A stretch of DNA of 64,000 bases from Naegleria gruberi (taxonomy: Eukaryota): NCBI GenBank assembly GCA_000004985.1, contig GG738907.1, one strand, 5' to 3'. Positions 1,715 to 50,830 of this stretch are shown piece after piece. The notes beneath the pieces are model-generated. The model saw nothing but the letters and a program-made list of their open reading frames with translations. It did not search any database and was not told the origin of the DNA. The translations under genes were made by a program, and so were the position numbers. Every line of letters starts with the position of its first letter. Positions within the stretch are counted from its first letter, which is position 1.

Positions 1715-1953
1715 GAAGACATTCACAGAGAGATCGGAACCTTCTGTTAATTCCGATTAATGATGATGATAGCTGAAGCCTTCTCAACTAAAAGATTTGA
1801 TGACTGGATAAGAGCAGAAAAACACAGCTTGAAATTTTTTGTTTTTTTTGTTTGTGGCAATTTTTATCGACTCTTCACTGGAATTTCGCAATACCAAAAA
1901 AACAAAGAAACTGGAGGCTTGATGGTGAATGAATTGACAAGTCTTTTAAAAAA

Positions 1954-3045
1954 ATGCATTGTTGTTTTGATTCAGTTGTCTCGTTGTGTGTATTGAGTTT
2001 TCTTCATCACAGAGACTGGCCAATCACAAAGCCTTTCCTAATTTCCTACACTTTCCGCAAGGTATTCAATTCCGATCGTTTCACCAGAGAATTTTTACAA
2101 AGACAATTGAAATTGGAGGATTGTGATAAATTGGAGGAGACAATTCACAACATGTACTACAAATTTAATTCATCAAATATTAAATGTTACAAAAGAGATC
2201 AAAACAAATACCAAATGATTACCAAGCCAGGTTCTTTGAGGGATGTTTTTCGAATTTATTTTATTTCATCTATTAATGGTGAAGAATCAATGCTCACTAA
2301 TAAGATTGACACTATTATCAAAGTGTTTAACAAGGAACGAAATGCCAAATTGTTGGATACGGTTGTAGAACTTGTCAAGGATGTCAAAAATAGTGTAGCT
2401 ACTTTAGATTCTTTTTATGACTTGACAGAGAATGAAGATACTCACAGTACTGTTTATTATTACTTTGGAGTTGATGAGATATCATCTGAAATCTTTCCAA
2501 GAATATTCAAGAAATTGAAAGGAGTTTATTTCCTCAATCAAGAAGAAACAGACATTTATGATTGTGCAGCATTTAACACATCAGTCGTAGTATTCACAAA
2601 TTCTGGCTATCCTCTACTTATTAAAACAGAATACACAACTAACACGGATACTTATAGAGGCCGTATTGTTGAGGAGGAAAATTGTTCAATTTATTCAGAT
2701 ATGATATTCACACACTCGAAACATTTCGATCAACGTGGAGATTTTCGTCCTGAATTTGAATGTAGCAGATCTAAATTATTGAAAAGTATTCAACCTTTGA
2801 TATTTAAAAAAGATAGTGCAATAACTTTGATGGATGAAGTTGAACATCCTGAAAACCAAGCGAAGGATGGCTTGATTTATGCATTCTTCCAATGTGCATT
2901 TGGAGTAAAGAAAAATTATTTTGCTCAAAATGTGAAGGATGATGATTGGGTACCTCTTTGCATAGTTAAAGATGGTAAATTCATTGAAAACCATGCAGAT
3001 AGTTCAGATGACGAATTTCCTTCCAAAAAAAGAAAATACAAGTAA
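1954..3045 (+). CDS. hypothetical protein. The true start may be an internal Met.
   Basis: A 363-codon ORF with A/T-third-position codon bias like its neighbours. It sits divergently from the gene starting at 1714, with a 240-bp AT-rich putative bidirectional promoter between them. I recognised no domain. The stop is at 3043..3045. Confidence 0.4.
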   Translation: MHCCFDSVVSLCVLSFLHHRDWPITKPFLISYTFRKVFNSDRFTREFLQRQLKLEDCDKLEETIHNMYYKFNSSNIKCYKRDQNKYQMITKPGSLRDVFRIYFISSINGEESMLTNKIDTIIKVFNKERNAKLLDTVVELVKDVKNSVATLDSFYDLTENEDTHSTVYYYFGVDEISSEIFPRIFKKLKGVYFLNQEETDIYDCAAFNTSVVVFTNSGYPLLIKTEYTTNTDTYRGRIVEEENCSIYSDMIFTHSKHFDQRGDFRPEFECSRSKLLKSIQPLIFKKDSAITLMDEVEHPENQAKDGLIYAFFQCAFGVKKNYFAQNVKDDDWVPLCIVKDGKFIENHADSSDDEFPSKKRKYK

Positions 3046-3141
3046 ACAACAAGTTGTTGTGGCAGAATGGCAAACAAACAAATCGAACAAATTTCGTTCA
3101 ACTCAGAAATCTTCCCAGTTGTTGTTTATTTTAAACCTAGC

Positions 3142-6100
3142 TTAAACAGAAGAAACAGTTACTTTCTTTCGATGTGTCAAAAACCATAATCTCAGTCCAA
3201 ATGCTATACATGCCACAAGTCCCATACCTCCAACTATTGGAATACTAATTAAGGCAAATAAGGCATACATGCTATTATCATTGGATTGTGAACAAATATT
3301 ACTTTTACATCCATCTCCACAATAATTAGCTTGGCACTGATCACAATTTGATCCAGTCCAATAACCATCTGCAGAATTGGCTTTACACTGACATATGTTT
3401 TGTGAAATGCAAAGTCCGTGACCTCCACAAACAGCAGAATTGGTTTTTGGAATTTCAAAACATGTCCAAGAATCTGAATTGCCTGGAGTTTTTGTGGAAT
3501 TTTGTGTTGTTGATTGAGTAGTATTATTTACAAGAGTGTTATTATTACTTGTCGTGGTAGTATTTACATTATTGCCTATAAGTGTATTATTATTTACAAT
3601 TGTGTTATTTGAAGAGTTAGTATTTGTAATATTATTATTTGTTATATTGTTTACAGTAGAATTATTATTCAATGACACAGTCTCATTTGTATTCATTGTT
3701 GTATTATTCGAATTATTGACAGTAGTGTTATTTGTAATAGTATTATTTGTAACGGTAGAATTTGAATTAAGTGTTGAGTTTGAAATAGCGTCATTGCTTA
3801 ATGTTCCATTATTGTTTGGAATTGAATTATTGGTATTGGAATTATTCATCTCTAGAGTGGTAGTATTTACAATAATTGAGCAATCCAATCCCTTCCATCC
3901 AAATTGACAATCACACTTATTTACAGTTGAACAGTTTCCATTTCCGGAACACACTGAACTATCATTGGCAAAAATGTTAAAGCAAGAAGGGATGGAACAA
4001 TCGAATCCAAACCATCCATTAAAGCATTGACAAGAATCAGTTGCTGTGCAATTACCATTTCCAGAACAAACTGAGCTCTCATTGCTTACAATTCCAAAAC
4101 AAGTGGACAATTCACAATTATTTCCATAAAAACCAGGATTACAAATGCAAGTATTTGGTGAATTACAAACTCCTCTTGATGAACAAACTTTTGAAGAATT
4201 TGAAATAATTCCAAAACATTTAGAGAATTCACAAAATTGACCACCGTATAAATCTCCACAATCACAAACATCAGGTGCAAAACAAACACCCAAGCCATTA
4301 CAGACATTTGGATTGTTGGCAAAGGTTCCATTGCATGTACGAAGTGTGGATATTACTCTTAGTCGACTATTGTCAGAGTCAATTACAATTATTTCACCAT
4401 TTCGTCTTAAAATTACTCCAGATGGATTATTGATTTTTGAAGCGGAGGCAGTGGTTCCATCTTCACTGTAACCCAAATCACCAGTTCCTGTAATGGTGGT
4501 GATATTACCATTAGAGAGAACTCTTCTAATTCTATTATTGTACGAATCTGCAATCAAGAGTTCATCACCGTCAATGGCAATTCCTTGTGGATATTTGAGT
4601 TGTGCATTTGTTGCTTCGATTCCATCACCGTTATAACCTAATGTGCCTGTTCCTGCAACAGTTATAATTGTTCCATTAGTAAACATCTTTCTTATTCTAT
4701 TGTTATAAGTATCTATTTGAATTAGTTCATCAATTGAAGATTCTTATTTCACTTACCTGCAATGTACATGTTATTACTTGAATCAAATGCGATAGATTGT
4801 GGATAATTCAGCTTGGTATTGTTCGGTAAGAGATAATCACCATTAAAACCAACAGAGCCTCCAATAACTGTGGAAATATTTCCACTTGGTAATATTAGTC
4901 TAATTCTATGATTATACGTATCTGTAATATAAACAAGATCATTTGAATCAACAGTTACTGAAACTGGGGAATTGAGTTTCGCATTTGTTGCTGGAATTCC
5001 ATCGCCATTGTAGCCACCTAATCCAACTCCAGCTATAGTAAGAATTGTACCATTTGTCAAAATTTTTCTAATTCTATTATTACCAGAATCTGGTAAAGTT
5101 TCAATACAAAAAATAATGGAAGATTACTTACCTGCAATATAAATATTACCAATGGAATCAAATGCAATTCCTGTTGGTTTGTTAACTTGAGCACTTGTTG
5201 CCAAAATTCCATCTCCATTATAACCAAAAGATCCAGTACCTGCAATGGTTGTGATGGTCCCATCCAAGTACGAAATCTTTCTAACTCTGTGATTGCTTGT
5301 ATCTGTGAAAATCATTGAAACCTTAATAAATTTCACACAATCAACTGAAAACTTACCAGCAATGTAAATATTTCCCAATGAATCCAATGCAGCACCTTTA
5401 GGTTTACTCAATGCGCTCAATCTAGAATCAACATTTTCACCACAATATGATGGAGAACCTTGTCCAGCTATTGTGGTAATAAATCCATTTGAAATCTTTC
5501 TAATTCTGTGATTTCCCTTATCAGCAATATATAAATCACTTGTGTTCTTGGCAAAATTCATCAATTCAGGAGAGGCAAGAGTTGCCAAATTGACCGTAGT
5601 ATTATCAGTAAAACCATACAAACTCGTTCCTGCAAATGTTGTAATGGTTCCATTGGTAGACACCTTTCTAATTCTATTAGAATCTGAAAAATAAACTTCG
5701 CCTAATGATGAAACTGCAACTCCATAAGGTGAATTAATTTTAGCTAAGGTTGCCAGGCCTCCATCTCCATAATAATCACCTGTTCCAGTACCGGCTATGG
5801 TTACAATAGTGCCATTCAATAATACTTTACGAATTCTGTTATTATTGGTGTCAGCAATATAAATATTGTCTTTCGTATCAACAGCAACACCAAAGGAAAG
5901 AAACAAAGTTGCACTCGTAGCTTTCATGTTATCTCCATTGTAACCTGTGAAAAAGTAATAAATTAAAAAACAGTTCCGTTAAAATACATACCTTGAGAAT
6001 TGCTTCCTGCCACTGTTATAATTGTTCCATTGTTGAACACTTGGCGAATTCTATTATTGTTCACGTCGGTAAAGAGTAATTCTTCCTTGCTATTTAATGT

Positions 6101-13538: not shown

Positions 13539-16500
13539 TTATGTAAAATAATATTTATTTAATGGTAAAAAGCGATGTTTAAGCCTCTTCTTCCTTGAGG
13601 TTTGCGTAATTAATATTGTTGTAATTTTCCTTCTTTTCATCACCACTGCCCGAAGAGCCTTCTTCTTTCTTCTGTAAATAACAAAGGCTACCACTCCTAC
13701 AACAAGAATAACAATTACCACTATTAATAAGATTAATCCCAATCCAATGAGGTAGTAATAGTTGTGATTTTCTCCAATAATAACACTGTTAGAGTCTTTT
13801 GGAAGGCCTTGCTGACTTGATTCATGAGTTGGAGGAGGATTTGGTGCAATCATTTGGGATATGATGGCAACGGAAGATGTCCATGATTTTGAGGAGCAGG
13901 ATACTGAGAAGATGGTTGCTTCTCCTTGTTCTATTTGATTAAGGATGGTTGTAGTTACATTATCAGTGTTCCAGCTGTTAGAATCATAGAATGCACATGA
14001 AAGACTTGTTGCTGCCTCTTTCTGAACTGAAATGTTGTGCATGTATAAGTGGATAGGCTCTTTGAGATTTGTTATTTCAATTCTTTCTGTTGTTCCATTT
14101 TGCAATAGAATGAAATTAACTATTGGACTAACTACTTTGGAATTCTCTTGTGATTTTGATGATTCAGGAATTACAGAGGAAGCCATTGTTAGAATCGTTT
14201 GTCCTAAAGTATTATTCAAAAATACATATTCTGAAATAGTGGAAGGTAGGACCATGATGATATTTTCATACTTTTCGAAGGTGATTGTGAGATGATTGTT
14301 AATATTTTGCACTTCCACAATGTTTGTTTCTGTTTCATTTGATTTCGATTCAATATTTGAACAATAGAAAGAATCTTTCTCAGATTCTGGACACAACACA
14401 TTTTGATCACATTCAGCTCCAAAATATCCATACTTGCATTGACACTTGTCTAATGAAGAGCAGAATCCATTACCAGAACAAACACGTTCATCAGAGAATG
14501 CAATACCAAAACAGTTGAATAACTCACAAGAATCACCAAAGTAGCCACCAGAACATTCACACTTATTTGGAGATACGCAATTCCCTCTGGACGAGCAAAC
14601 TGTCTTGTTGGACATTAGAATATCAAAACATTTGAAAAGTTCACATTCATCTCCTTCATAACCCTCTAAACATTCACATTCATTATATCCAATACAATTA
14701 CCTTTTCCAGAACAAACATTATTAGCAGAAGGTATCTTTCCATAGCAAATTGTATTATCGAGGGTCAATTGAAGCATTGGATTTGGCTCTCCAGCTTTAC
14801 CAGAAATAGCAATAGAAAGTTCCACATAGCTCGATGAAAATTCTGTTATTGGAATAATTAGTGATCTGTCATGGTCTCCATTCGAAGAGTAGCTGCTGTA
14901 GTCTGGGGAGTAAATTTGTTTAGCAACACCGACATTCACATAACCTGAAACAGCCTTAATATTCAAAACGAGATAGTCAGAATATGGCCGTCCGTAATAA
15001 TTGAGGATGTTGGGCATTCCATCAGTAGATGCCTTCATCAATATAGTATCTCGTAAACGGATGAAGGCGTCATCTAAGAAGGCAGATAATTTGAATGTGG
15101 AAGCAACTAGCCCGTAAACTCCAATGTAATAGCATCCAACTTGTTGATTGCTTAACATGAGAACTTGACCGTATTGAGTTTCAGGATCCACTTTCCAATT
15201 ATAATGAGTTTCATTCGCAGGTTGGCAGTCATTAGAAACATACATGATTGTGGAGCCGGTAATATTGATCAACGCAAAGGAAAGATGTGAAGCAATGTTT
15301 TTTTTGAGATCGAATCTGAATTGATGAATCTCATTGTTAGCGACACTATCTTCCCCAGAAATTCTATTCAAAGGTAATACTCTGTAAATAATTTTCACTT
15401 TCAACTTATACGAAACAGGAGTTGAAGAACTCGTCTTGACAGCAATGTAAAGGTAACTTCCTGAAAAGAGGATTTCCTGGTTGTAAATACCATTAATTTC
15501 TTGTGGTGCACCATCTTGCCCTATTGGTTTAGGATTTTCGGTACTGTAATAAAGGTTAATGACACCAACACTTTCAATTGAAATGAGCAATTTCATTGAA
15601 CCATCCAATGGATATTGGTAAAATTGATAGAAATCCGTATTTACAATTTTAGAGGAAACAATCTGGTCATTTGATAAGAGAATTGACTTGTTTGATTGTA
15701 AAGCCATTATTGAGTAGTATGAAAGTGCTGAAAGTTCTGAATAAGTTCCTTCCACTGTAACACGAAACTCATTTGAAGTTATGAGTTTAGAGATTCCTGG
15801 AATTAGCAATGCATTTGGTGACCGTGTACTCCAATTATAATCTCTTGGAGAAGGAAAGGTATTCTTGGTATTGACATACAACTCAACGCTTCCAACTGAT
15901 GTTGAAATGAAGAACATTATATCAGTATTGTTAAGTTCCTCTTGCTTGGCTTTGAAAGTGAAGTATCCATATTTTCCATAAGGTACAACAAACAATCCAA
16001 CTCTTCTTCCATTGATCAATTCTGTTGGAGGATTTTCTGTTGAATATGTCAACGTATAAGAAGAGTCAACTTCACCAAAAACAGAAAATTTGAGATCACT
16101 TCTCTCGTTAATAATCAGTTGTCCAGGTTGACCTACTGTTCCATTAGCTGCCCTAGTGTGAACATATTGATTTGGTCTTTCACTTTCAAAGGAAAGGAAC
16201 AATTTCACACTTCCAAAAAATACAGTCAATGTAAGGCTACTTTTTAGCATATCTTTCTTGTTATGTTGGTAGTAATTCAATTGATTTGCAGCAACTGTTC
16301 CATTCACAGCAACATCCTCTTGTAAAAGCACGTATTCTGGCATTGATTTTACGGTCAAAGTTACCAATCCAATCTTGATTCCAATGTAATAAGTGCCAAC
16401 CTTTGAATCACTCATAGGAATTTGCTTTACTTTTTCTCTATTTGCCAACATGTAATAATCATAACTGTTCTCAGTTGGTTTGGTTCCATACTTGATATAA

Positions 16501-17447
16501 AAGTCTACCATCTTGGTTGTTCTCACAATAACTTCAAACCTTAAATTTTGTAATATCAAGTTATTGTAAACAAAATAGTGCAAATCTGAAGTTGGTGAAT
16601 CCTCCCTGAATGCAATACTAAGACTCTCAGATATCATTGTTGAAGTATTTGCTTGACATGAAACTATTGTAAACTTGTTGTCAACAAAATATCCATACAC
16701 TCCAATCCAGTACTCTCTTGGAGAATTTTCCTCCACTGGAATGGTAACAGAATCAGGTCCATAACTACGTGATGCATAATCATAATCTGTACTGGTTGGA
16801 AATTGAGATATTCCTGAAACATATAGATCAGAATCTCCCTCTTGAGTACCAATAGAAATATAGAGCTTTGTTGGTAGTTGACCAGTGACTTTAACTTTAA
16901 AATAGGAATAACCATTTCTCTCTACCTGACTGTATTGTGGTTGACCATCAACTAGAGTAACATGTGCTGTTTAGGTTCGTTTCCAATAGTAAAAATTTCC
17001 CATGTTTTACAACTTACCTGGACTAGTACTTCCCCACAAGTTGAAAGTAAACCTAGCAGGAGTATTACCATACACACCAATTGTGAAAATATTTCCATTA
17101 CTTGGCCATGTTCCATTCGCAGTGACAAGTAAACTTGGATACGAAAGCAAACACTTTTCACACTGTAAAGTTGGTTGACCATACGTGCTAACATACATGT
17201 AGACTTCACCACTCAACGGAGTCAATGCAAATGTAGCAACAGCACTAGAAAAAAGACTTGGATCTACATAGTAATAATGCCATCCTCCTTCTTCTACCAT
17301 ACCATTTATAGGAATACCAATTTGTTGAATGATTTCTGCTTGATTTTGAGTGGACAGTAAAATATTTAATAATAAAATGATGGTTATCAACAAGAGGGAA
17401 ACAGGAAACAGCTGTGTACGGACCACCACTGGTGGTGTGGAAACCAT
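13539..17447 (-). CDS. large type-I membrane protein of about 1285 aa with a signal peptide, a big extracellular region, three tenascin-type EGF repeats, a TM helix and a short basic tail. Two exons.
   Basis: Exon 1 is 17447..17018 (signal-peptide-like MVSTPPVVVRTQLFPVSLLLITIILLLNILL). A 52-nt intron runs 17017..16966, GTAAGT...CAG. Exon 2 is 16965..13539, in frame with the supplied ORF 13539..16736. The EGF repeats read CYGKIPSANNVCSGKGNCIGYNECECLEGYEGDECE and two more. The TM helix is YYLIGLGLILLIVVIVILVVGVVAFVIY followed by RRKKK. Confidence 0.7.
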
Positions 17448-20709: not shown

Positions 20710-22659
20710 TTATTGTTGTAAATATCTGCAGCCAACAAGATATAGTAAATAAATCAAAATCAGCTTCAATGTCAAGGCAATGACAGCTGCATTGGTTTCT
20801 GTTGAACTAGTTCTGAATCTCTTTGATGCAAAATAATCTGGATAGATCTGTTCTGTTTTAGTGAGCTTCAACAAGTCATCAATTGACCATTCTCCATTTC
20901 TATTTGGGGAATGATTCAACAAACGCAAGATGATTTCCTTTCTGCCTTCATAATCTGCAAGTTGATAAATTTCAAATAATTGTCCAGCTAATATTCTAGA
21001 AAGCAAAATGTTAAATGTTTTGTGAGGTCTTTCAATATCCTTCTTGGATAATAAACTTGCATAATTTACATTTTTAGAAATTTCCAAAGTTTCCAAATTT
21101 GGTAGTTGTTTTAAATAATTTACAAATTCGTCATTGAAAAATTGAACTGGATCTACTTCTGTCTTGTAATGAACGAGGAATAGTTTGAGGAGGAGAATAT
21201 TCTTGATAAATTCTTCTCTAGTTTCCAATGGTCGAGTGAATTTCTTATTAAAGAACTTGGCCACACGAACAGTATTGAATCCAATGTCGAAAATTGACAT
21301 TTTAGAATCAGTAGCAATGGTTTCGAACAGGAAAGGAATGACATGTTTGAAATTGGAAGATAACGTGTCCAGTTCTGTAAAATTATTGAGATTCAGCAAG
21401 ATTAATTCATGTAAACTGAAAGCTAGAGATCTAATTAGAGCTCTATACTCCAAAGAGTTCAATTTCGTGTCATTTCCATACAGTACAATCACCATGGCAG
21501 GTGTTCTTCCTTCCTTAATAGTAAACGTCTTACAGGGAAAATCTTCTGTTGAATTTTCCTTCTTTCTTCCTTTAACAATGTAAATAGTTCCGAAACTCTT
21601 CGATTTCTTATCACCTTCATGGCATTGAATTCTAACAAATGAATTTTCATTATCCTTAAAGAGTGAAAAATAGAAATTTCCCTTATTCATGGATATGAAA
21701 TCTTTAACTGCCTTATCAGTTGAAAATTTTCCATATTTTTCAATATTCAAATGAGGGAAAACCAACAGGGTTCTAATAAAACTCAATCTGTTTTGTAATT
21801 TCCAAATTGGAATACTTGATTTGAATGGAGAAAATCTTAAAACACTTTCAATGGAACGTTGAGCATGTGGCTTGACAAGTTCCATTCCAGTTTCGAATAT
21901 TTTCAAGAATTCGCTTGGCTCTTTCAACATTAGCTCTTCTCTATGAATCTTGCCTTTGATAAATTCATCTCTCAATAAATTCTCCATGTCTTGATTGAGA
22001 GAATGTGAATTTTCATAAGATTCCAATGATTTTCCATCATTTTTCCAACTTGGTTTGACATTTGGCAACTGAAATGATGGAACACTTTCATCTCCTCCAA
22101 AATATTGCTCTAACAACTCGTCCATGTATGGAACTTTCTGATTATAAACTTCATTCGAATATTTTTCAACCATTTCCAAATTTTTCTTCAATTCCAATTC
22201 AAGAATTTTCAATTTTTCCTTTTGATTTTCAATAAATTTTAATTCTTCTTCTGTTAAAATCTCATTCATCACATAAATCCATCTCTTGATTGGTAAATAA
22301 TGTGAAATTATCAAATCTTCCATTGTTGGTCGCATTTCTGCTTGTTTGTTTCGAATAGCAAGTCGTGGAATGGTTTTTAATGCATTTTCCAATGAATTTA
22401 ATTTAGTTTGAATTAAATTATGGAAGGAATCTTGCCAGAAGGGAGAATTTACATTCTTCTTGTGATGATCACTTCTTGTAATTAATTTATAAATTGTTGG
22501 AAAGGAATCGTCCAGTTTCGGAGTGGTCTTAACTTGTCTATAGAAACGATTGACAACTTTTCTGGCATAATTTCTGTAAGAATGTGTTTCGTATGAGATT
22601 AAACTTGTGCCAATTCGATGAAATTTTCCCACAGAACCCGAAACTAAAGGTTTCATCAT
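20710..22659 (-). CDS. hypothetical protein of 649 aa with a C-terminal hydrophobic segment, possibly tail-anchored
   Basis: A single long ORF with an ATG at 22659..22657. The C-terminus AAVIALTLKLILIYLLYLVGC is TM-like. I recognised no domain. Confidence 0.45.
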   Translation of the reverse strand: MMKPLVSGSVGKFHRIGTSLISYETHSYRNYARKVVNRFYRQVKTTPKLDDSFPTIYKLITRSDHHKKNVNSPFWQDSFHNLIQTKLNSLENALKTIPRLAIRNKQAEMRPTMEDLIISHYLPIKRWIYVMNEILTEEELKFIENQKEKLKILELELKKNLEMVEKYSNEVYNQKVPYMDELLEQYFGGDESVPSFQLPNVKPSWKNDGKSLESYENSHSLNQDMENLLRDEFIKGKIHREELMLKEPSEFLKIFETGMELVKPHAQRSIESVLRFSPFKSSIPIWKLQNRLSFIRTLLVFPHLNIEKYGKFSTDKAVKDFISMNKGNFYFSLFKDNENSFVRIQCHEGDKKSKSFGTIYIVKGRKKENSTEDFPCKTFTIKEGRTPAMVIVLYGNDTKLNSLEYRALIRSLAFSLHELILLNLNNFTELDTLSSNFKHVIPFLFETIATDSKMSIFDIGFNTVRVAKFFNKKFTRPLETREEFIKNILLLKLFLVHYKTEVDPVQFFNDEFVNYLKQLPNLETLEISKNVNYASLLSKKDIERPHKTFNILLSRILAGQLFEIYQLADYEGRKEIILRLLNHSPNRNGEWSIDDLLKLTKTEQIYPDYFASKRFRTSSTETNAAVIALTLKLILIYLLYLVGCRYLQQ

Positions 22660-22703: not shown

Positions 22704-23060
22704 TTACAAATTTTCTTTTTGATAAATTTCAACTTGCTTGATCATATTGAAAAGCAAATCTTCAACTTGCATGGCAGATTTTTCAATTCCATTTACAAAT
22801 TGACTATATAAGGTAAAATTAGTTTCCTTTCCACACATGCCAAGTTTCTGAACGAGTGGCATTCTGTCGAATTCTTCTATTTGTTTCCTTCTTTCTGAAT
22901 ATTTCTCAATTCTTTCATTTTCTGAATAGATAAAAAAGTATAAATACCATTCTAGGTAAAGATCCAATTTTCTACTTGACAATTCGTCAACAGATTGGTG
23001 ACCAGTATGGGAAATGAACATTCTCTCGAGGGGAATCCAATAATTTTCATAAATTTGCAA
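22704..23060 (-). other. downstream ORF that overlaps the DUF262 CDS end by 14 nt in another frame. It is either a frameshifted C-terminal continuation (pseudogene or assembly indel) or spurious.
   Basis: It starts at TTG, not ATG. No GT..AG intron can join the two frames. I see no recognisable DUF1524/HNH motif. Confidence 0.3.
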
Positions 23061-24046: not shown

Positions 24047-26497
24047 TTACATGATTGTGCATTTCCTTTTTCGTGAGGGATTTTGAAGTTTGCTTTTTCT
24101 TCTCTTCAATTCTTGTGATAGGGTGGCATCGTCCTTGGCCAATGCCTGATCAATGATTGGTAATGTTTTCACATACGTCTTGACTCGGGCTCTATACATC
24201 ATGGCTGAAATTTTCTCAAAGGAGCTTTGAATATTCTCCAGAGTGTCTGTATTAACAATGACCACATCCTTAATAAAGTACGAGTAGGTTTTCTGAACCT
24301 CCCATAAATCATTCAAGGAAATCTCGTGTAAGGTGGTATTTTTCGTGATTGTTCCCAGAATGATGGCTGCTGGAGGATCCATGGTTGTTCTTTGCTCATC
24401 CTTCTTTCTAAACTCGATACACTTTTCAATGTACTTGATCATGGCATCGAGGGAACTTCTGCTCGACATGTAGGCAACGAATATGACTCCATCAGTGCCT
24501 CTGAACTTGTATTCTGCACTATTTGGAGCGAGGGAATAGTCCATAAAACTGCACGATTCTACCTTTACTTTGAATTCTTCCTTGTTAAATTTTATACTCT
24601 TACATTCAAAGTCAGTTTTGCCTGGTAAGGTGAATTTCATGTAAATAATTCATGAATAAATATTTGAAAACTTACTCTCGAAAAATAGAGATCTAATTGT
24701 TTGCACAACAAGAAAGTTGACACCAGCAACCAACAAGTAAAAGTAATTGGATGGATCGTAAACTACATTCTTCTTTTTAGGAATGACAACCTTTTGTTGC
24801 AGAGATTGAGTATTCACATACGAGTAGAGTCTCTTGTAGGAAATGTTCAATGACTTTTTACATTCGAGATCCCTCATGTACTCTTCCAGCTTGTCAATGG
24901 TTGGAAAATTAGGATAGACATATTGCCACAGTATCATGTATTTCCAAAAACCTTCCACAATACTATTCTTGAATTGATCTTCATTTTCAGGATCAAATTC
25001 AAGAGCCGAGTGAAAACTTTTAGAAATGAGCATTAAATTAAAATAATCACGAGTAAGCTCTGCTGGGAATGGTGTATATTTCGGATAGTGGCCTATTCTT
25101 CTCATGGTTGAGCTGGAATTTCTTCTCGATATGGTAGAATTACTCGAATCTATAGGTGTTATTGAACTAGGAGAAAAGGAACCAATCATGTTAGTACCTG
25201 TTGGTGAAAAGGAAAAGTCAGCAAACAAGCTTGACGTATGGGTTGTTGTACATAGTATAAAACTGGCAATGTGTAAAATAATTTCTTGTGGACAGTCAGA
25301 AAGATTCGAATAATTCCTAATTTTTTGTCGTTTAGGTTTTTGACTAGAAAGCTGTGACAGTGTACTACTCAACCTCCTGATGAATTTTAAATTTGATGAA
25401 GGATTATTAGTCGGTGATGAAAGTACTTCATCTTGCTCCGTGAGACAAATTATTGTTGTTGGGTCAATCAGGCATGTGGCATTTGCCGTCATTTTTTCAC
25501 CATTATTTTCAAGTGTTTGGTTATTTTTATCTCCTTCCTGATCAATCTGGGAACGATTTTCCCTTCCCAAAACCTTGTCATTAATCAAACAGTTTTCTGC
25601 TGGGTTGCCTTCTTCTGTATGTCTTTCGTTTGAGGAAGAATGAAAGCTCAGTTCTTCTCTACTACTGCAACTAGTATTAGTTGTTGGTGATTCGACAAAT
25701 GGTACGACATTTGATTCATTACTGCAACAACTAATATTTGATAAGCTGTGATTCGTATTGTGGACTCCTGAAACAGATGAGGAAAATGACTTGAATGAGG
25801 ATAAAGTATTAGTGGTTGAATGTTTCTTCTTGTTAGGTGTTATTAGAGAGCCATCTACTGTTAGAAATTGAGTGTTAGAAGGACTCTTATTTAGTGGTGG
25901 AGAATGGTAATGTTTCTTTGCCATCTTGGATTCTTTAGATTTACGTAAGAGTCTTGTGAGAATGTTATTTCCCTTAATGGTCAAACTTTGACCATTAGTT
26001 AGTAGTGAAGGTTGAGTAGTATTTGATGTTATTGAGATGGTTGGAATGGCAGTGTTAGTGAGGGCAATAGAAGGAGGACATGCTTGATTATTCTTATTAT
26101 TCGAAACGAGGGTCTCTGAGCGAGAGAATGAATCTCTAGATTTCTGAGAAACTTTAGGTAATGGATTCGAGCTGGATCTTCCTCTTGTCTTACTTTCATC
26201 TGGAGCAAAACTTGGACTAGCCATTGAATCTGTCTCATGAATAGAACATCTCTTCAAATTTGCTGATTGACTAGCCAATAAATCATTCCTCTCCTGAATA
26301 CCAACATCATGCTTTGAAACTTGATTTAAATTTCTACTAAATATTGAAAGAGAGCTAACGACACCATTAATACTATTTGATGAAATATCCAATCTTGAAA
26401 AGGATAAATTTGAGCCTTGATTTCTCTTACGACGTTGTTTCGTATAAGATGGAGCCAATTGAGCAGTTGAAAGTAGTACTACTTGATGAGAGGGCAT
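24047..26497 (-). CDS. F-box protein of about 800 aa with a C-terminal Ras-like domain that has no P-loop, ending in a polybasic stretch and a CaaX box. Two exons.
   Basis: Exon 1 is 26497..24676 and exon 2 is 24621..24047. The 54-nt intron runs 24675..24622, GTAAGT...CAG. It joins the supplied ORFs 24650..26497 and 24047..24640 in frame, and the track's M at 24640 lies inside the intron. The F-box-like motif is LSDCPQEIILHIASFIL. The C-terminal domain has a Ras-fold-like pattern (YLLVAG, TDGVIFVAY, ILGTITK) but no GxxxxGK[ST]. The tail reads KRRKSKLQNPSRKRKCTIM, polybasic plus CaaX. Confidence 0.6.
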
Positions 26498-28582: not shown

Positions 28583-31120
28583 ATGCCACTTTATGAAAAA
28601 GAACAAAAGAAAAAAATGGCACAAGTTGAAACGTTAGATTCGTGTAGTTCAATTCAAGAGCCAATAGTGCCAGAAAGTCAGCAAGAGACTTGTCTCATAA
28701 GTGCTGACAATGATTCTAAACTTGAAGAATCTCAAGTTCATCTCTCCGAAATATCAACATCATCTTCACCTTCAGTTCACCAACAACCCGAAAATCCAAA
28801 CTCATCCCTATTTGAATTGTCAAATTACTTTGGTATTGGCCATTTATTGGATGAAACACAAGAGTATTCATATGAAACTTGTCAATTTACAAGTTGTTCT
28901 CAACAATGTCATGAATTTTTATTTAAATTCCATCACGGATTACTCTCTTCGAAGCCTAATTCATTGATGATAGATTTCGATTGGGAAGATCACATTGATG
29001 TAGTTTCCGTCATCCTTCAGCTTGTAAACCAATCTGAAGAAAAGTCGATAGACATGGCTTCTACACAGTTAAAAGCAAAAATTTATGTAAAATGTGCTGA
29101 ATCAACTGTTGATTTGCAGATCAATGCAATTTCAGGCATTCCTTTGACAAGTTGGATTGGAAAATTGGTCTTGCCGATTGTGAAATTTTCTCACTTGCCT
29201 TCAACACTTTCAAACTTGAAAGAATTCGTTCCACTGAGCGAAGAATTGAGTGAGGAGATGAAAATGGTATTCTTCTCTAGTTATCCTTCACTATTCAGAC
29301 AATATTTCAATCATTTTCCAAGTGTTAATGATCAGAAAAATGCAAACATGGTATTATCCGATTTTTTGATTGGTTTATTATGGATTGGTTGTTTGAATAT
29401 TGAAAAATCCAATGAAATTTCATCCAGAGTGAGGACTGTCATGCAAAGATCGATAGGATGTCTTCAGTATTGGATTAGTAATTATGGATTTTGTTTTGAT
29501 GTGCTGAGTAGCAATTTTGTCAAATCATCCCTTCAACAAATTGAAGAATTATTGAACAAGATTGAAAAGAATGAGTGGAAAGATGAATTAAGTGGAGTTT
29601 TGAAATTAATTTCAGAAGATTCATTGAATCAACATGCATTTCCATTATCTTTCAATGATTGGTCGGAATATCTTTCAAACAAGAGGAAGGAGTTGGGTCT
29701 TGATGAAGAGGAAGAAGAAAATGCAGAAGAAGAAACTCAAGAAGCAGATGAAGAAGAGGAGTATACTCAAGTTGAAGAGGAAGGAGAGGACGAAGATGAA
29801 GAGGAAGAGGAGGAAGAAGTAGATGTCTCTGAAATGTTCAACAAGCTATCCTCCTTCATTCTCTCCCAACATGATTTGCAAGCCACTGAAATTCCTGAAG
29901 TATTTGCAAATCAAGAGGAAATTCTGCTTGCTAATTTACCAAATGACATTGACAGTGTTTATTCTATCGTTTTGGATATAATGAGAAAGTCTAATCCCGA
30001 AAAGGCATCATTTTTTGAGGAGTTAGCACAACCTGATTTGTATCTTCATTTCATAATGCAATGGTCTCCTCTTGAAATTGCCAAGCAATTGACAAACTAT
30101 GAGTTTACTAATCATTTTGAACAATGCAAGACTCATGACTTTTTCTCAACAGGCGCACTCAGTAATAATCAAAGTAATTTGGATCAAATGATTGACAGAT
30201 TTAATTGGATGTCATTGTGGATTGTTTACACCATTCTAAGACAAGAAAGTTTGGAGAATCGTGTGAAAATTATTGGATATTTTGTTCAAGTCATGTTTTT
30301 CACATTATCCTTACAAAATTATCAAAATACCATGTGTATCATTAGTGCATTCCACAATAGTTGCATCTCTAAATTGGCAACAGCTTGGAAGGAGGTTAGC
30401 GAATTGAGAGATCAGACCAATGCTTTTACTTATCATCAATTTCTTGAAGGAGTCAATGATTTACTCTCACTTCAAAAGAAATTTTTCAAATTGAAATATC
30501 ACATTATTCAAAATATTGAAACAAGTTTGGAAAACAATGAAGAAGGCACTCAATTCTCCTGCATTCCATATGTTGGTGTTTGGCTTGGTGAAATTTCCAG
30601 TATTGAAACTTATTATAATGACTTTGTTTCACCACCAACTCATCTCAAACAACATCACAGTCACATTTCAAATTCCAACACGACTCTTCACACCCACCAA
30701 TATCCTCATCACTATCTGTTCAACTATGAAAAGAAGAGATTAATCACCAAACCTCTCAAGGAAATTCAAACATTCCAAAAGCTTTCCTTGCACACTGAAA
30801 ATGAAAACATTTCACTCTTCAAATCTGTACCATTACTGTTACATGTCCTGTCAACTAATGAAATGATCAAGGCGCTTCCTCTCGATCCATCAAATAGTTC
30901 TAATAGTCCAAGCTCAAATGGACCAACGAATGAGAGTGCTCTTTCTGTAAATTCTCAACATTCTGATTTGAGTCCAGCACTTTCGAATATTTCATTGAGC
31001 TCGAATGGATCTGGTTTCTTCCAAGGTCAATCGACAGTCATGTTAAAATCCGTAACAAATAGTGAATATATGAAGAAGATATTCCGTGAAATGACAAAGG
31101 AAATTCTTCAAAAGGAATAA
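28583..31120 (+). CDS. RasGEF (CDC25-homology) domain protein of 845 aa
   Basis: The C-terminal half carries the CDC25 catalytic-domain motifs: LEIAKQLTNYEFTNHFEQCKTHDF, CIISAFHNSCISKLATAWKEVS and IPYVGVWLGEI. There is an acidic E/D-rich linker at 29690..29820. Confidence 0.75.
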   Translation: MPLYEKEQKKKMAQVETLDSCSSIQEPIVPESQQETCLISADNDSKLEESQVHLSEISTSSSPSVHQQPENPNSSLFELSNYFGIGHLLDETQEYSYETCQFTSCSQQCHEFLFKFHHGLLSSKPNSLMIDFDWEDHIDVVSVILQLVNQSEEKSIDMASTQLKAKIYVKCAESTVDLQINAISGIPLTSWIGKLVLPIVKFSHLPSTLSNLKEFVPLSEELSEEMKMVFFSSYPSLFRQYFNHFPSVNDQKNANMVLSDFLIGLLWIGCLNIEKSNEISSRVRTVMQRSIGCLQYWISNYGFCFDVLSSNFVKSSLQQIEELLNKIEKNEWKDELSGVLKLISEDSLNQHAFPLSFNDWSEYLSNKRKELGLDEEEEENAEEETQEADEEEEYTQVEEEGEDEDEEEEEEEVDVSEMFNKLSSFILSQHDLQATEIPEVFANQEEILLANLPNDIDSVYSIVLDIMRKSNPEKASFFEELAQPDLYLHFIMQWSPLEIAKQLTNYEFTNHFEQCKTHDFFSTGALSNNQSNLDQMIDRFNWMSLWIVYTILRQESLENRVKIIGYFVQVMFFTLSLQNYQNTMCIISAFHNSCISKLATAWKEVSELRDQTNAFTYHQFLEGVNDLLSLQKKFFKLKYHIIQNIETSLENNEEGTQFSCIPYVGVWLGEISSIETYYNDFVSPPTHLKQHHSHISNSNTTLHTHQYPHHYLFNYEKKRLITKPLKEIQTFQKLSLHTENENISLFKSVPLLLHVLSTNEMIKALPLDPSNSSNSPSSNGPTNESALSVNSQHSDLSPALSNISLSSNGSGFFQGQSTVMLKSVTNSEYMKKIFREMTKEILQKE

Positions 31121-39460: not shown

Positions 39461-42400
39461 ATGCCACCAAAATATGTCATTCAACAGCAAAAATTGAAAC
39501 AACAGGCAGTGTCTAATCAATCACCACAAGCAAATTCTAATGGTTTATTTGTTCAACTGGGTGTGTTACCACAAACCAATCCACAACCACAACCAACTTT
39601 AGTTGATTTACCTCCTCTTGTTGTTCCCACCAACAGTATCATTACTCCGTCCACACCAAATGATCAATCATCTACACCACTGTCAGCTGTTTCAACATCA
39701 TCCATAAGTTTGCAAGCATCATCAACACCAACTAGTTCATCACCTCCTGCAGCCAAACCAGCAACAAAGAACGAAACTAAAAAACCAAAAGAGAAAGACA
39801 AGAAAGAAAAGGACAAGAAGGAAAAAAAAGAAACGAAGGATAAGAAAGAAAAGAAAGAAAAGAAGGAAAAGAAAGAAAAAAAGGAGAAGGAAGAGAAGGA
39901 CAAGAAGAGAAAAAAGGTTCCAGAAAAGTCTTCTGAAAAAAGTAAAAAGAAGAAATCCGATGCTTCTACTCCAACAATCAACACAACATCAATTACCAGT
40001 AGTAGTGCAACTCCAACAGTACCATCTCCACAAAAGGTTGTAAAAGATGTTGAAATGACAGATGTCTTAACAAAGGAAGAAGTGATCAAAGCAGTGTTTG
40101 AAAATATTCCAAAACAAGTTATTGTTAAAATATCATGCTTGGATTCTAATGAGTTCCAAATTGATGAAGATATTGTATTAAGTGAAGAGGGAATTCCAAT
40201 TGTTAACGGTATCAAATTGTTTCAATCAATTGATTGGAACAATTCATTAGAAGATCATGAATCTTTCTTTAATTTCAACTGCTCACTTGTTCTTTCAACT
40301 ATTGCCAGCGAAAGTTCAATAACAGTTCAAGAGTTTATTTATTCTATTGATGAGGCACTCAAATTGAATCAACAGTATTGTAAGGATTTGATGCGTTCTA
40401 TGAATATTTCACACGAAAACTATTCCTTTGTGTACGATTTGCAAACCAACTCAATGAGCTTGATTTTCAAGAGAGAAACAGAAATAGTGGAACTTGCTGA
40501 AATGCTCTACGAAATCAAGACTATTAGAGAACTGAAGGAGGCTGAAGAAATGGAAGCCGAGGAGCAAATTATTACAGAGGGACCAATAGATGAAATTCAA
40601 GTCAATTTTGAGTTTAATTTTGAAAAGGAGGAGAAAAAGTATGTATTGGAGCTTCGTGCACCAAAGGCAAAATCGTACAAAACCATTGTCTCATCCCATC
40701 TCCAAATTGCTGAAAGTGATATTTTGAATTATGGTGAAATAGCTAGCGAAACACTGGTTGAAGCTAATGGTGTATTACCAACAAAACTGAAGGACGTTCT
40801 AGCTAGCAGAGTTGATGTAAAGGTAGTGCATCGTCATGTCTATTATGAGCAGAGAGTAATTTCATATGAAATATTCGAAAGAATGAAGGATATTATTGGA
40901 CAGACTGAGTTTTCATTATATAATCATCTCTGCTTTCTAGTTTGTACGCCTGATCAGAATACCTTATGGCATCAGACAATGGAAAGATTGGAAAGATCCA
41001 ACATTCTGCCACCAAATACCAAACTTTCACATGTCTCAATCAAGTATAGAAAAGATCACGTCCAGATGTTCGAAAAATTCAGAGACAGAATTGCAAATGA
41101 AAAAGAAACTCTCTTCATTATAATTGTAGACGAGTGTCACTATGCAATTACCAAAGAAGGTGCTCACGACAAGATTGTTAATGATGAGCTCGCTCTTCAA
41201 CACAATAACTTTTTCATTCTATTGGTGAGCGCAACCCCTTACAATGTCCTCTCAGTTGATAGTAATATTCCAGAAGTGTACAAACTCTTGAACAAACATG
41301 AAGATTTGGAAGTTGGTACAAAAATTCAAGTCACTTCCACGAATTATAACAAGATAGGATTTGGTGTATTGATCAAATATGAGGAGCAATATTCTACTCC
41401 TGTGTATGAGCTAATTGAATCCAAGGATCAAAATATATTTTTGGAGGATGTAGAAGAAATAACTGGTAAGATTATACCACTCATGAGTGATGAATCTGAA
41501 GAGAAAAACTTTGAAATTGGAGAAGTTGTGGAATATGAAGAAGTTCCTGACACAAATCCTCAACCAACTTCTAAGAAATCAATCTCAACAGTCAGGTACA
41601 TAGTCAAATCCCTAACAAGAAACTTGGAAATGGAAGTAAACCTCTCAGATAGAGATTTACGAAAGATTAATACTTCAAAAACTAGAAGAATTACAAATCA
41701 AGCAATTGGCAATATTCCAAAGGGAAAACTTGTTGAAATACATGATATAATCAAGTGGAGTGTAACTTTCAAACCAGTGAATAATGATCCAGCAGTATCC
41801 AAAGAATACACCCTCAATGATTGGCAATTCAAACACCTTACCAATTACGAGGAGTACAATGTTGTGAGTTGGAGTGAAGTACAAAAGCGTACAACCTTGG
41901 AAAGAACAGAGCAAGATAATCAAACGAAGAAATACTTCAGCAAACAGGATTACATTAATTCTCTCAAGCAAGAAGAACCACTTGTTTTCAAAGATTTAGA
42001 ATTTGAAAGAGTTCTGAAAAAGATCAAGGTTGCATCCAATACTTTAAGACCAATCATGTTAGCTATTGACTATCACTTTTGGATTATTACTGAAGGATTG
42101 AGAAGAAAACTATATGATGAAGTTACTGCTTACAGACATTTTAATTCCATTGATGCTGCTCTTGATATTGAACCAAAGCACAAAATATACGTAGAGATTT
42201 GTAAATTAATTTATCTAGCTTACTTGTGTGCTAAACATTTGAAGATGGATGATGTTTTGGAGAATCAAGAATTTGATGACGAGGACGATGACTATGATAT
42301 CCTTGATGAAACTAAAAAGACCGTAAAGAAAAAGAAGGAAGATTTGGAAAAGAAAATTCAACATTTACTGGAATATTTGAAAAATAAGTTCAAGCCAAAG

Positions 42401-45291
42401 AATCCTGAAAGATTATTTTCAGTTTTAATCGATCAAGAATCCCACACCAAAACTCTCATTAATACCTTGATAGAATCTGGTAAAATTCCAAATGATAACA
42501 GTGTGACGTTGAGAGGGAAAATGAAAATATTGAGAATTACAACTACAGATTTTGCCAACACTGTTTTCAAGCTATTGAGAAGTTCCATTTCCAAAGTAGC
42601 AGCAAGTGGCTACATTTCACCAGATATTCTCATAGACACTGGTGAAAATCCACTCACTCTCGATCAATTATCTTTCATCTCAAGAATGAAACTTGCTGAA
42701 AAAGTTCTGTCCACAGAAGATTATGAAGTTTTCCAAAGAAAACCAAGTAGACTTTCTAAGGAGAAAAAATCTTTGGAATACATTAATTTACACAATTTCC
42801 CTTGCATTCTAATCCTAGTTGCCAAAGGTCGTCAGGGAGATACCTTCCCTAATTCATTTGATTGCTTGGATATGAGAGCCAAAGGTGATTCCTTGCCAAA
42901 TTACTCATCTTTTACACAAGAATTTGGTCGTTTGTGTAGATATGTGGACGATTCTGACAAGAAACCTATTGCACTTGTAACAGATTCAATTTATAAGGAT
43001 TTATCCAAGTGCGGTGAAGGTGGAGCTACAATAGTAGGTAACACGAGCATGAAGCTTGATACCTACATGACCAAGATGAAAGGAAAGGAAGGTCAAAAGT
43101 ATTGGTCCATTGTTACATTCTGTAGAAGAACCATGACTGCAGTTGATGGAAAAAAGCTTAAAGGTGAAAAGAAAAGTCCTCCTTCCTATGATTCAATGAG
43201 ATCAGGTTCTGATAAGGATATCTCCTCAAAGAAAAATCACAAGAATCGTATGTTACTATTCGCCGAACCACAAGTAAGTATATTTATAGTATTTGTGAAT
43301 ATTAATAACAATGAAATCAGATTGGTAAAACAGACGCCTTTATTCACTGTTTGGAAAGAGTAATTCATGACATTGAGAAAAATAGAAGTGAGCGTATGGT
43401 TGATATTAATGAAGAAGAACAACCATACGATGATAATTCTATTGGTGTTGATGCTGTTATTTCTAACTATTCTGAATTGGAACGTGTATTACCTTACTTT
43501 GAAAATTTACAAGGTCAACAAAGGGGTGAATACAGCTCAATTTCTGCTGGAAAGTATGCCAAGCTTGTTTTGAAAACCAGAGAGGAAATATTCACTGAAT
43601 TTACACCTGATAAGATCAGGTCTGTACACAAATTATCAAGAATTGAATCTTTCATGACAAGTTCCAATCATTATTGGAGCAAGTTTATGGAAAAATTGAG
43701 TAGCCACAACTTTGATTTGGAAACATTCCAGACATTTGATGGAAGATACAATGATATTTTACATCCTTCATCTGGATATAGAACGCTGAAGTTTGGAGAA
43801 TCAAGTTCTACATCATCCTCGAAAGAAATTATTGAGAAAGTTGACTTATCCGAAAAGATGAATATTGGTCTTGCAGATATGAATTATAAGGATAAATTAA
43901 TTACCATCCAATTGCAAAAGGTATTTGGATTGAAGATGGCCATGCTAGAGTCTTGCTTTCCAGGAGAAAAGCCATTAATTTCCATTCCATCAAGCAAAAT
44001 GAATTGGTTTGTAATTTCATCAGATCAACAACATGTCACCAGATTCCTACTGCCTGATGATCCTAATGGTGTTAGAAGTTGGATATTTGTCCCTTCTTGG
44101 AATAGAAGTGCCTCAGGTTTATTCTATCTGAAAAGTATGAAGGTTCCATATAGACAAGTAATTGTTGTAAGACATTCCGAATTCAAGTGCTATAGAAATG
44201 TTTTGGGAGGAGATTTTGTGATTATGAGCTTACCAGATATTGTGAATATGAAAGATCTTTTCAAACTATTCCCAATCCCAACAACTGAACAAAGAAAGTT
44301 ACAGTACAATGAAATAGTGGATGGAAAAACTCTTATTGATTATGAAATGAAGGACGATGTTGGAGGAATTGGCTACTCTAGAATGGTCATTCAAATTCTT
44401 TCCTATGCATTTGGTTTGGAATTTATTTGGATGATGGATGATAATTGCCATCACTTTGAGAAGGTTGAAAATGGTAGAAAGGTTCCTTGCTCATTGGCAG
44501 AAGTTTTAATTCCACTCGAGAAAATTGTCTATGATGAAAACAAACCAATTTCAACTATTACTCAGTCAATTCAACCAATATTTAAAAATAGACAAAATCC
44601 ATCTCTGAATATCACTCTTAATGATAGTATAAGCAGTTTTACTCCTGGAAAGGATAAAATTGCCATGATTGGAGTTAGAAAGGATGGATACAGATATTCT
44701 TCATCGATCAACTACAAACCATTTGTAAACAGTTTCACCATTTGTTCTCTCTTCCTTTTGAATACAAAAAGAACAATTGATTCTGGTTGTATATTCCCAT
44801 CAAGAAGATATTTAGAAGACATTGAATTTGAATATTTATGTTTGGAAAGAGGCTTATATTGTGTGAAATCACAAAACTATTTCCTTCATAAACCTGCGAA
44901 TCCGTTGAGAATAGATTATGTTTTACCAGTTCCAACCATGTATGAAATTGAAGAGGAAATTTTTAATACCATTTCAAACTCAATTTCCACCTCTCAAGCC
45001 AACGAACCTTCAAATGAATTCTTAGCAATCAAAGATTTGATCAAGAATTCAAATCCTCAAGCAATCATATTTGATGATTCTAGGAGTTTCATCATGCAAG
45101 CATCTTCAATCTTTTTGACAGCTCCCACTTTTGAAATGTTCACCTTTTTTCAAACAAACGACATTAGAGAAAATCTCAGATCCATCTTGAGCTTCCTTCC
45201 TTTTGCCAAATCGCAAACCTCTGTGTTTTATTATTCCCCAAGTTCTGATGAATCATCAACCAAAGAATTGATACTAAAGTTTGTGAAATAG
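39461..45291 (+). CDS. very large protein of about 1930 aa: a K/E-rich N-terminal repeat region, a central SF2-helicase/ResIII-like core with motifs II to VI but no recognisable Walker A, and a long C-terminal region. Two exons.
   Basis: Exon 1 is 39461..43273, with a GTAAGT donor at 43274. The 47-nt intron ends in TCAG at 43320. Exon 2 is 43321..45291, in frame with the supplied ORF 43351..45291, whose M is a TTG. Motif II is LFIIIVDECHYAI (DECH). Motif III is FILLVSATPYN (SAT). Motifs V and VI are ILILVAKGRQGDTFPN and TQEFGRLCRY (QxxGRxxR). The region upstream of DECH (..HLCFLVCTPDQNTLW..) has no GxGK[ST]. The 39790..39910 stretch is a (GAA/AAG) repeat encoding KEKKEK. Confidence 0.6.
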
Positions 45292-50757: not shown

Positions 50758-50830
50758 GCCCGTCTAGCTCAGTCGGTAGAGCGCAAGGCTCTTAACCTTG
50801 TGGTCGTGGGTTCGACCCCCACGGTGGGCG
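50758..50830 (+). tRNA. tRNA-Lys(CTT): tRNA-Lys (anticodon CTT)
   Basis: GCCCGTCTAGCTCAGTCGGTAGAGCGCAAGGCTCTTAACCTTGTGGTCGTGGGTTCGACCCCCACGGTGGGCG is 73 nt. The acceptor stem has 7 bp (two G-U pairs). The D-arm is TAGCTCAGTCGGTAGAGC. The anticodon stem CAAGG/CCTTG closes the loop CTCTTAA, giving anticodon CTT. The T-arm is GGGTTCGACCCCC. It closely matches eukaryotic cytosolic tRNA-Lys. Confidence 0.9.

Follow-up and report, generated by a model that had tools for sequence, protein, structure and literature searches.

The minus strand of a 64,000-nucleotide stretch of Naegleria gruberi DNA (GenBank assembly GCA_000004985.1, contig GG738907.1), to which we refer as the window, harbors at positions 24047..26497 a two-exon gene whose product combines a putative split F-box, a Ras-like domain in which the P-loop is deleted and the G3, G4 and G5 motifs are replaced, and a polybasic tail ending in a CaaX box. 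The explanation that we favor, and which we regard as reasonably probable, is that the protein acts as a membrane-tethered, farnesylated adaptor of an Skp1-Cul1-F-box (SCF) ubiquitin ligase, with a nucleotide-free Ras-like domain as its presumed binding module, and that it represents a divergent member of a Naegleria-specific family. A first-pass annotation, made from the sequence alone, had arrived at a similar picture, of which the spliced gene, the F-box, the P-loop-less Ras-derived domain and the polybasic CaaX tail are retained here, whereas its novelty had been over-rated.

Gene structure and relatives of the protein

The region contains two adjacent open reading frames (ORFs) on the minus strand, 24650..26497 (615 amino acids, aa) and 24047..24640 (197 aa), which had been proposed to form one protein across a 54-nucleotide (nt) intron. 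Indeed, the in-frame splice joins both ORFs into a product of 798 aa, which is identical to the N. gruberi model XP_002671276.1 (EFC38532.1, NAEGRDRAFT_53059), deposited as "predicted protein"; reading through the intron leads to a stop after 7 codons. The features of the gene, all located on the minus strand, are listed below.

24676..26497, minus: coding sequence (CDS) exon 1, aa 1-607 and the first base of codon 608 (ORF list, splice reconstruction, match to XP_002671276.1)
24622..24675, minus: intron, 54 nt, phase 1, GTAAGT...CCAG (splice reconstruction; position and phase kept in the metagenomic locus L001 and the N. fowleri locus L002)
24047..24621, minus: CDS exon 2, aa 608-798, followed by the stop codon TAA at 24047..24049 (ORF list, splice reconstruction)
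25304..26497, minus: N-terminal region rich in S, T and N, aa 1-398, probably disordered (poor conservation in the four-orthologue alignment, no Pfam match)
25253..25303, minus: putative F-box helix 1, LSDCPQEIILHIASFIL, aa 399-415 (Pfam, hhalign)
25055..25252, minus: low-complexity insertion of 66 residues in the F-box, aa 416-481 (alignments; the Pfam halves match separate parts of the profile)
24926..25054, minus: putative F-box helices 2-3 and EGFW motif, TRDYFNLMLISKSFHSAL...EGFWKYMILW, aa 482-524 (PF00646 positions 19-35)
24743..24925, minus: conserved helical linker, aa 525-585 (aligned colinearly by hhalign to the linker found in the extension-bearing Ras subgroup of Naegleria; predicted secondary structure)
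24170..24742, minus: degenerate Ras-like G domain, aa 586-758, spanning the intron (hhalign to the Naegleria Ras subgroup)
24704..24736, minus: P-loop site LLVAG-VNFLVV with a 5-residue deletion (hhalign)
24539..24562, minus: G3 site VESCSFMD (hhalign)
24338..24361, minus: G4 site ILGTITKN (hhalign)
24239..24256, minus: G5 site VNTDTL (hhalign)
24107..24169, minus: C-terminal helix KTLPIIDQALAKDDATLSQEL, aa 759-779 (counterpart of the 'LLKxVIxxDxxxI' helix in the Naegleria Ras subgroup)
24062..24106, minus: polybasic stretch KRRKSKLQNPSRKRK, aa 780-794 (direct reading; basic character kept in the orthologues)
24050..24061, minus: CaaX box CTIM, aa 795-798 (direct reading; directly before the stop)

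Orthologues were searched for among proteins by a word-indexed search of 5.8 billion clusters and by an exhaustive phmmer search over 1.84 billion representatives. The former yielded nothing but an exon-1 fragment (P0001), whether the query was the single sequence or a profile, and the latter returned orthologue fragments and one repeat-protein artefact (P0004). The orthologue fragments P0001, P0002 and P0003 are all broken at one exon boundary by prokaryote-style gene calling. At the DNA level, we compared the position and the phase of the intron in L001, from JGI metagenome 3300002220, and in the N. fowleri contig L002. Their introns of 40 nt and 70 nt, respectively, both start with a GTAAGT donor at the matching codon and in the matching phase; since the intron sequences are unrelated and the flanking coding sequence is conserved, this argues that the splice is not a chance join. 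The spliced product of L002 corresponds exactly to the N. fowleri RefSeq protein XP_044562031.1 (1019 aa), and the N. lovaniensis orthologue XP_044551473.1 (1009 aa) is continuous across the junction in the protein-level comparison. Upstream of the gene, a divergently transcribed 4HBT_2 thioesterase gene is found both in the N. gruberi window and in N. fowleri.

L001 is a 13.6-kb heterolobosean contig (MLSBCLC_10045441) from an environmental metagenome, with the gene at 1454/1592..3341. Because its orthologue shares no more than about 60-70% identity with the proteins of the three Naegleria species that have been sequenced, the contig seems to originate from an unsequenced relative. The called start of this orthologue, ATG 1592, is probably located too far downstream, since the ORF, including a conserved basic motif, reaches 1454.

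The relatives of the orthogroup were identified by profile comparison. Table S8 of Herman et al. 2021 (PMC8296547) describes N. gruberi "Ras" proteins with an LPxEILxxILSF…FQSL…EFWW N-terminal extension, which is followed by a linker, a normal G domain, an "LLKxVIxxD" C-terminal helix and a CaaX box ending in M. In an end-to-end hhalign comparison with ten of these proteins, 289 columns aligned in colinear order from F-box helix 1 to the CaaX box (96.1%, P 3.4e-9), with a score of 69.6 compared to a mean of 16.2 (standard deviation 3.6, maximum 33.2) for 100 column shuffles. The similarity is not confined to one part of the protein: the N-terminal half scored 29.3 (shuffle maximum 15.2), and the G domain alone, i.e. 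after removal of tails and extensions, scored 32.8-32.9 over 138-140 colinear columns (shuffle maximum 20.5-20.6). The closest single paralogue is ACER01000547.1 (262 columns, 76%). One degenerate Ras protein from Table S8 gave no signal against the orthogroup in the profile comparison. We also considered membership in the 'Rab-like F-box + CaaX' clade and rejected it, as the six Rab-like F-box sequences scored 14.7-18.6, i.e. no similarity.

The first-pass annotation had called the architecture unusual, which is overstated for Naegleria, where F-box fusions and CaaX-bearing subgroups have already been described (PMC8296547). According to supplementary text 4 of that study, no additional domain occurs more often on the Ras-superfamily GTPases of Naegleria than the F-box, which is found on Rab, Rho, Ran and Gα proteins; divergent Rab-like clades bear an N-terminal F-box, one of them together with a conserved CaaX box, and the authors propose GTPase-dependent ubiquitination from such fusions. 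XP_002671276.1 (also searched as EFC38532 and 53059) and six diagnostic peptides are absent from 19 supplementary files of this study. The protein is thus an uncatalogued, fully degenerate member of a published architecture, and the novelty is confined to an orthogroup that is missing from the census and to the complete degeneration of its pseudo-GTPase.

Domains of the protein

The first-pass annotation had described a C-terminal domain without GxxxxGK[ST], and this motif is indeed absent from the whole domain. Where the relatives show vlG…vGKSsI, the P-loop site reads LLVAG-VNFLVVQ, with a deletion of five residues at the position of vGKS, and the same holds for all four orthologues. At the aligned positions of the other motifs, DxxG(Q) is replaced by ESCSF (G3), [NT]KxD by G[TN]IT[KN]N (G4) and SA[KL] by NTDTL (G5), and the replacement residues at the G motifs are invariant across the four species. 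Because the P-loop is deleted and the NKxD base-recognition motif is lost, the domain is predicted not to bind nucleotides. Further F-box- or extension-bearing Rab-like and Ras proteins in Table S8 have no recognizable P-loop, e.g. 'IAMFGSEISQLYHHM' (XP_002680400.1, ACER01000495.1, XP_002671156.1); judged from these sequences, the loss of the GTP switch may be recurrent in these Naegleria families and not unique to XP_002671276.1. In the window itself, tblastn with the protein and with H-Ras detected no paralogue and no other small GTPase gene.

The F-box had been proposed from the motif CPQEIILHIASFIL, which is present at aa 402-415. In the native sequence, Pfam reports two separate partial matches, one to F-box-like with 12.9 bits on the CPQEIIL… part and one to F-box with 13.5 bits, where DYFNLMLISKSFHSAL, about 65 residues downstream of the helix 1 match, covers profile positions 19-35, because the 66-residue insertion splits helix 1 from helix 2. 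Upon excision of this insertion, PF00646 reaches 24.3 bits over profile positions 1-35, the excision point being our own choice. Likewise, the four-orthologue F-box profile without the insertion matches nine reference F-boxes, four of them taken from Table S8, with an hhalign value of 92% and a score of 32.8, compared to a maximum of 15.0 in 30 shuffles. The signature LP/CP-xEIL...SF and [VI]sKsF...W is present in all four orthologues. From these sequence comparisons we conclude that the F-box, though split, appears to be real. The end of the insertion (aa ~455-481, ~25055..25110) keeps SR(SG)R[NH]S..[ST]..[KR]R..YPK[YL]T.FP.EL in all four orthologues. The motif looks similar to a site for basophilic kinases and may have a regulatory role for the split F-box.

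The C-terminus reads KRRKSKLQNPSRKRK-CTIM-stop, so that the polybasic stretch and the prenylation box are directly visible, as had been noted before. All four orthologues end in C-a-a-M, i.e. CTIM in N. gruberi, CSVM in N. fowleri and in N. lovaniensis, and CVLM in L001, and in all of them a basic stretch precedes the box; in the three orthologues other than that of N. gruberi, this stretch is shorter and its pattern less regular. A CaaX box with Met at position X is favored by farnesyltransferase over geranylgeranyl addition, and under these established rules Cys795 is predicted to be farnesylated. The protein is therefore probably anchored to a membrane.

Possible function and rival readings

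The common plan of the Naegleria-specific family comprises an F-box-like extension, a helical linker, a Ras-type G domain, a C-terminal helix and a CaaX box ending in M. In the orthogroup described here, the G domain would have turned into a pseudo-GTPase by deletion of the P-loop and replacement of G3, G4 and G5, and the F-box would have gained its insertion and come to lie behind an N-terminus of about 400 residues, which is probably disordered. As in K-Ras4B, the farnesylated CaaX box and the adjacent polybasic stretch would hold the protein at an acidic membrane. Skp1-Cul1-Rbx1 would be recruited by the F-box, and the nucleotide-free Ras-like domain would act as a constitutive, non-switching binding module, which would present a membrane-proximal partner for ubiquitination. 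In a more speculative and less probable version, the farnesyl-anchored pseudo-GTPase would serve throughout the genus as a substrate-recognition module of SCF, perhaps as a mimic of activated or empty Ras that captures guanine nucleotide exchange factors (GEFs), GTPase-activating proteins (GAPs) or effectors. If true, this would be the first pseudo-GTPase used as the substrate-binding domain of an F-box protein, and it would provide a route for the degradative pruning of the very large Naegleria Ras network.

Several observations weigh against the SCF adaptor. Both partial matches of the native F-box stay below the Pfam cut-offs (20.5 bits for F-box, PF00646; 24.3 bits for F-box-like, PF12937), and since the excision point was hand-picked, which favors the match, the result after excision represents good support but not a blind test. 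In Table S8, the extension of the reference subgroup is not annotated as an F-box; its helix 1 reaches about 13 bits in Pfam, and a single member scores 17.5 bits with F-box-like_2. The insertion, located in the loop between helix 1 and helix 2, could impair the binding of Skp1. For the C-terminal domain, no Ras-type Pfam family (PF00071 or related) matches the native sequence even at E<=10, direct hhalign comparisons with canonical Rab-only and Ras-only alignments stay within the range of the shuffles, and both AlphaFold2 (AF2) models are of low confidence, with no significant match in Foldseek. In addition, the N-terminal basic cluster KQRRKR (aa 20-25, 26423..26440, minus strand) is kept as K-[QR]-R-R-K-R in the otherwise unalignable N-termini of N. 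fowleri and N. lovaniensis and as KTRRKRK in the upstream ORF of L001 (~1575..1595); such a conserved KRRKR cluster could be a nuclear localization signal, in conflict with a purely membrane-bound role.

The main rival, which we judge unlikely but not negligible, is a membrane-tethered pseudo-GTPase that functions as a scaffold or decoy without SCF. Its 'F-box' would then be a family-specific helical extension that has lost the binding of Skp1 and packs against the G-like domain or regulates it, and the protein would act at the membrane by sequestering the effectors of its GTP-binding paralogues or their regulators (GEFs, GAPs). The sub-threshold native scores, the splitting of the motif by the insertion and the weak Pfam scores of the reference-subgroup extension (up to about 13 bits for helix 1, 17.5 bits in one member) would all fit this rival, as would the fact that class I pseudo-GTPases are known as pure interaction modules (PMC5593906, PMC12490416). 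However, the joined halves pass PF00646 and match the reference F-boxes at 92%, the signature is kept in 4 of 4 orthologues, and Naegleria GTPases are commonly fused to bona fide F-boxes (PMC8296547). For these reasons, we prefer the SCF adaptor over a scaffold with a non-functional F-box. The F-box-like motif as first described thus stands as a sequence feature, whereas it is recognized by PF00646 only in its joined form.

That the C-terminal domain does not derive from a G domain at all is improbable. It would then be an unrelated alpha/beta domain of the flavodoxin or Rossmann-like type, with the similarity to the Naegleria Ras proteins caused solely by the extension, the C-terminal helix and the CaaX box. 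Consistent with this, Pfam finds nothing significant on the whole protein or on its halves, no GTPase is among the matches of the exhaustive phmmer search, phmmer with the C-terminal 230 aa against the PDB sequences yields chance matches only, and the canonical Rab and Ras scores do not exceed the shuffles, on account of which we also dropped an affinity to the Rab or the Ras subfamily. Moreover, besides GTPases, the Foldseek matches of the AF2 model include FNR, flavodoxin-like and helicase folds, all of them below significance. Against this stands the score of the G domain alone, which clearly exceeds its shuffle maximum after the extension and the tail have been removed. Furthermore, Rab35 is the top PDB match of the three-orthologue profile (E 0.48), in the correct register of beta2-beta3, switch II and beta4. 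The AF2 models (pLDDT 38.8 from the single sequence and 42.3 from a four-row alignment) are low-confidence, but their secondary-structure order, alpha1-b2-b3-a2-b4-a3-b5-a4-b6-a5, matches Ras, and the two best Foldseek matches of the model with a pLDDT of 42.3 are RAB43 and Ras, which at E 0.046-0.059 lie below significance and are suggestive at most. The profile homology to the Naegleria Ras subgroup thus points to an origin of the domain from the Ras superfamily, and this membership is transitive, because the direct comparison with canonical Rab and Ras proteins falls within the range of the shuffles. The Ras-like strand pattern claimed earlier is accordingly in keeping with the homology and with the predicted order of elements, whereas neither the structural models nor the direct comparison reach significance.

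The conservation of the gene bears on the last rival. In the four-orthologue alignment, conservation begins at the F-box motif (aa 399), the first ~398 residues being barely alignable, and the highest conservation within the protein, a mean column identity of 83%, is reached in the degenerate C-terminal domain. For the G-like domain and the tail, the proportion of nonsynonymous differences (pN) is 0.15-0.20 at a proportion of synonymous differences (pS) of 0.84-0.89; pN and pS are given in place of dN/dS, since the synonymous sites are saturated. The low pN at saturated pS indicates strong purifying selection on the degenerate domain. A decaying paralogue or pseudogene, or two genes with the CaaX exon outside the functional F-box protein, is therefore highly improbable: birth-and-death evolution and pseudogenes have been noted in these Naegleria families (PMC8296547) and all catalytic motifs are lost, but the frame is uninterrupted in four species and the intron position is conserved, the pN is low, the replaced motif residues are invariant, and the domain that degenerated is the one that is conserved best, while exon 2 lacks beta1 and alpha1 of the domain, its sole ATG-initiated ORF begins within the intron, and three independent RefSeq models (N. 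gruberi, N. fowleri, N. lovaniensis) join the exons.

Known systems and neighboring genes

With the extension-bearing Ras proteins of Naegleria (XP_002673059.1, XP_002682439.1, ACER01000547.1), XP_002671276.1 shares the colinear architecture up to C-a-a-M and the genus-restricted distribution. These proteins mostly keep GxxxxGK[ST], DxxG and NKxD, whereas XP_002671276.1 has lost the P-loop by deletion and carries replacements at every G motif, and the F-box insertion of 66 residues and the N-terminus of about 400, probably disordered residues set it further apart. The Naegleria fusions of an F-box with Rab-like, Rho, Ran or G-alpha domains also carry the F-box N-terminal to the Ras-superfamily domain, one Rab-like subgroup including a CaaX box (PMC8296547), but a 'GTPase dependence' based on nucleotide switching could not apply to XP_002671276.1.

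F-box proteins that carry a CaaX box at the C-terminus are known from other organisms, where the box targets the SCF ligase to membranes, i.e. human FBXL2 and FBXO10, which are geranylgeranylated, and the farnesylated AnkB of Legionella (PMC9988375, PMC5627969, PMC11042265, PMC2916131). Their substrate modules are leucine-rich repeats, CASH and ankyrin repeats, respectively, instead of a Ras-like domain, there is no homology outside the F-box, and the Met at position X predicts farnesylation here in contrast to the geranylgeranylation of FBXL2 and FBXO10. RhoBTB proteins likewise join a cullin adaptor to a Ras-superfamily domain whose GTPase cycling is atypical or absent (PMC4931677), but this adaptor is BTB/Cul3 and not F-box/Cul1, the GTPase domain is N-terminal, RhoBTB1/2 lack a CaaX box and the origin is independent. 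Class I pseudo-GTPases (pG1 and pG2 of p190RhoGAP, AAGAB, CENP-M) resemble the degenerate domain as G folds without nucleotide motifs that act as interaction modules (PMC5593906, PMC12490416); they were proven by structures and binding assays, whereas XP_002671276.1 is known from its sequence, and none of them is fused to an F-box. In our literature search, we found no paper combining "pseudoGTPase" with "F-box". With K-Ras4B, the analogy is limited to the tail, in which a CaaX box ending in Met directly follows a stretch rich in lysine and arginine.

The Ras-superfamily repertoire of Naegleria is among the largest known (PMC8296547), and the frequent occurrence of F-boxes on its GTPases suggests a largely unexplored link between G-protein signaling and ubiquitination, which, as exemplified by this orthogroup, can outlast the destruction of the GTP switch. 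The dead G domain is the part that is most strongly conserved across the four orthologues, which argues for a task independent of nucleotides. As the protein was overlooked in a careful census made by hand, such censuses under-count degenerate members. In N. fowleri, on which a farnesyltransferase inhibitor is active and where inhibition of this enzyme is explored as therapy (PMC7560193), the orthologue is a further candidate for farnesylation. In practical terms the value is modest: a "hypothetical protein" can be annotated better, and pseudo-GTPase function gains a tractable test case; XP_002671276.1 is a reasonable experimental target, although its architecture is not categorically new.

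Among the neighboring genes, a RasGEF-domain protein of 845 aa is encoded at 28583..31120 (plus strand), two genes from the pseudo-GTPase and past the thioesterase gene. A functional linkage between the two was considered and rejected as apparently coincidental, because the N. fowleri contig L002 has no gene call resembling this RasGEF at the equivalent place. The downstream neighbor XP_002671275.1 (23047..23874, minus strand) contains a GmrSD_N/DUF262 domain (Pfam, 77 bits), which in type IV restriction enzymes of prokaryotes forms the N-terminal domain. This gene may have been laterally acquired or domesticated in a eukaryote. It is adjoined by the ORFs 22704..23060 and 20710..22659 (both minus strand), the latter of which comprises 649 aa without a Pfam match.

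Further away, a GREB1-like circularly permuted superfamily 2 (SF2) helicase (39461..43363, plus strand, 437 bits) overlaps with the ORF 43351..45291 (plus strand), which encodes the end of the helicase domain and a TET-associated glycosyltransferase (TAGT) domain. Both ORFs probably represent one gene that is broken by a short intron or a frameshift, and which is relevant to DNA base modification of the TET/JBP type in Naegleria. The sole Rfam match in the window is a tRNA-Lys with the anticodon CTT (50758..50830, plus strand). A protein of 1065 aa with teneurin-type EGF repeats (13539..16736, minus strand) and an RCC1/Kelch/fibrinogen-C-like protein of 668 aa (45304..47310, minus strand) look typical of the expanded surface and signaling repertoires of Naegleria.

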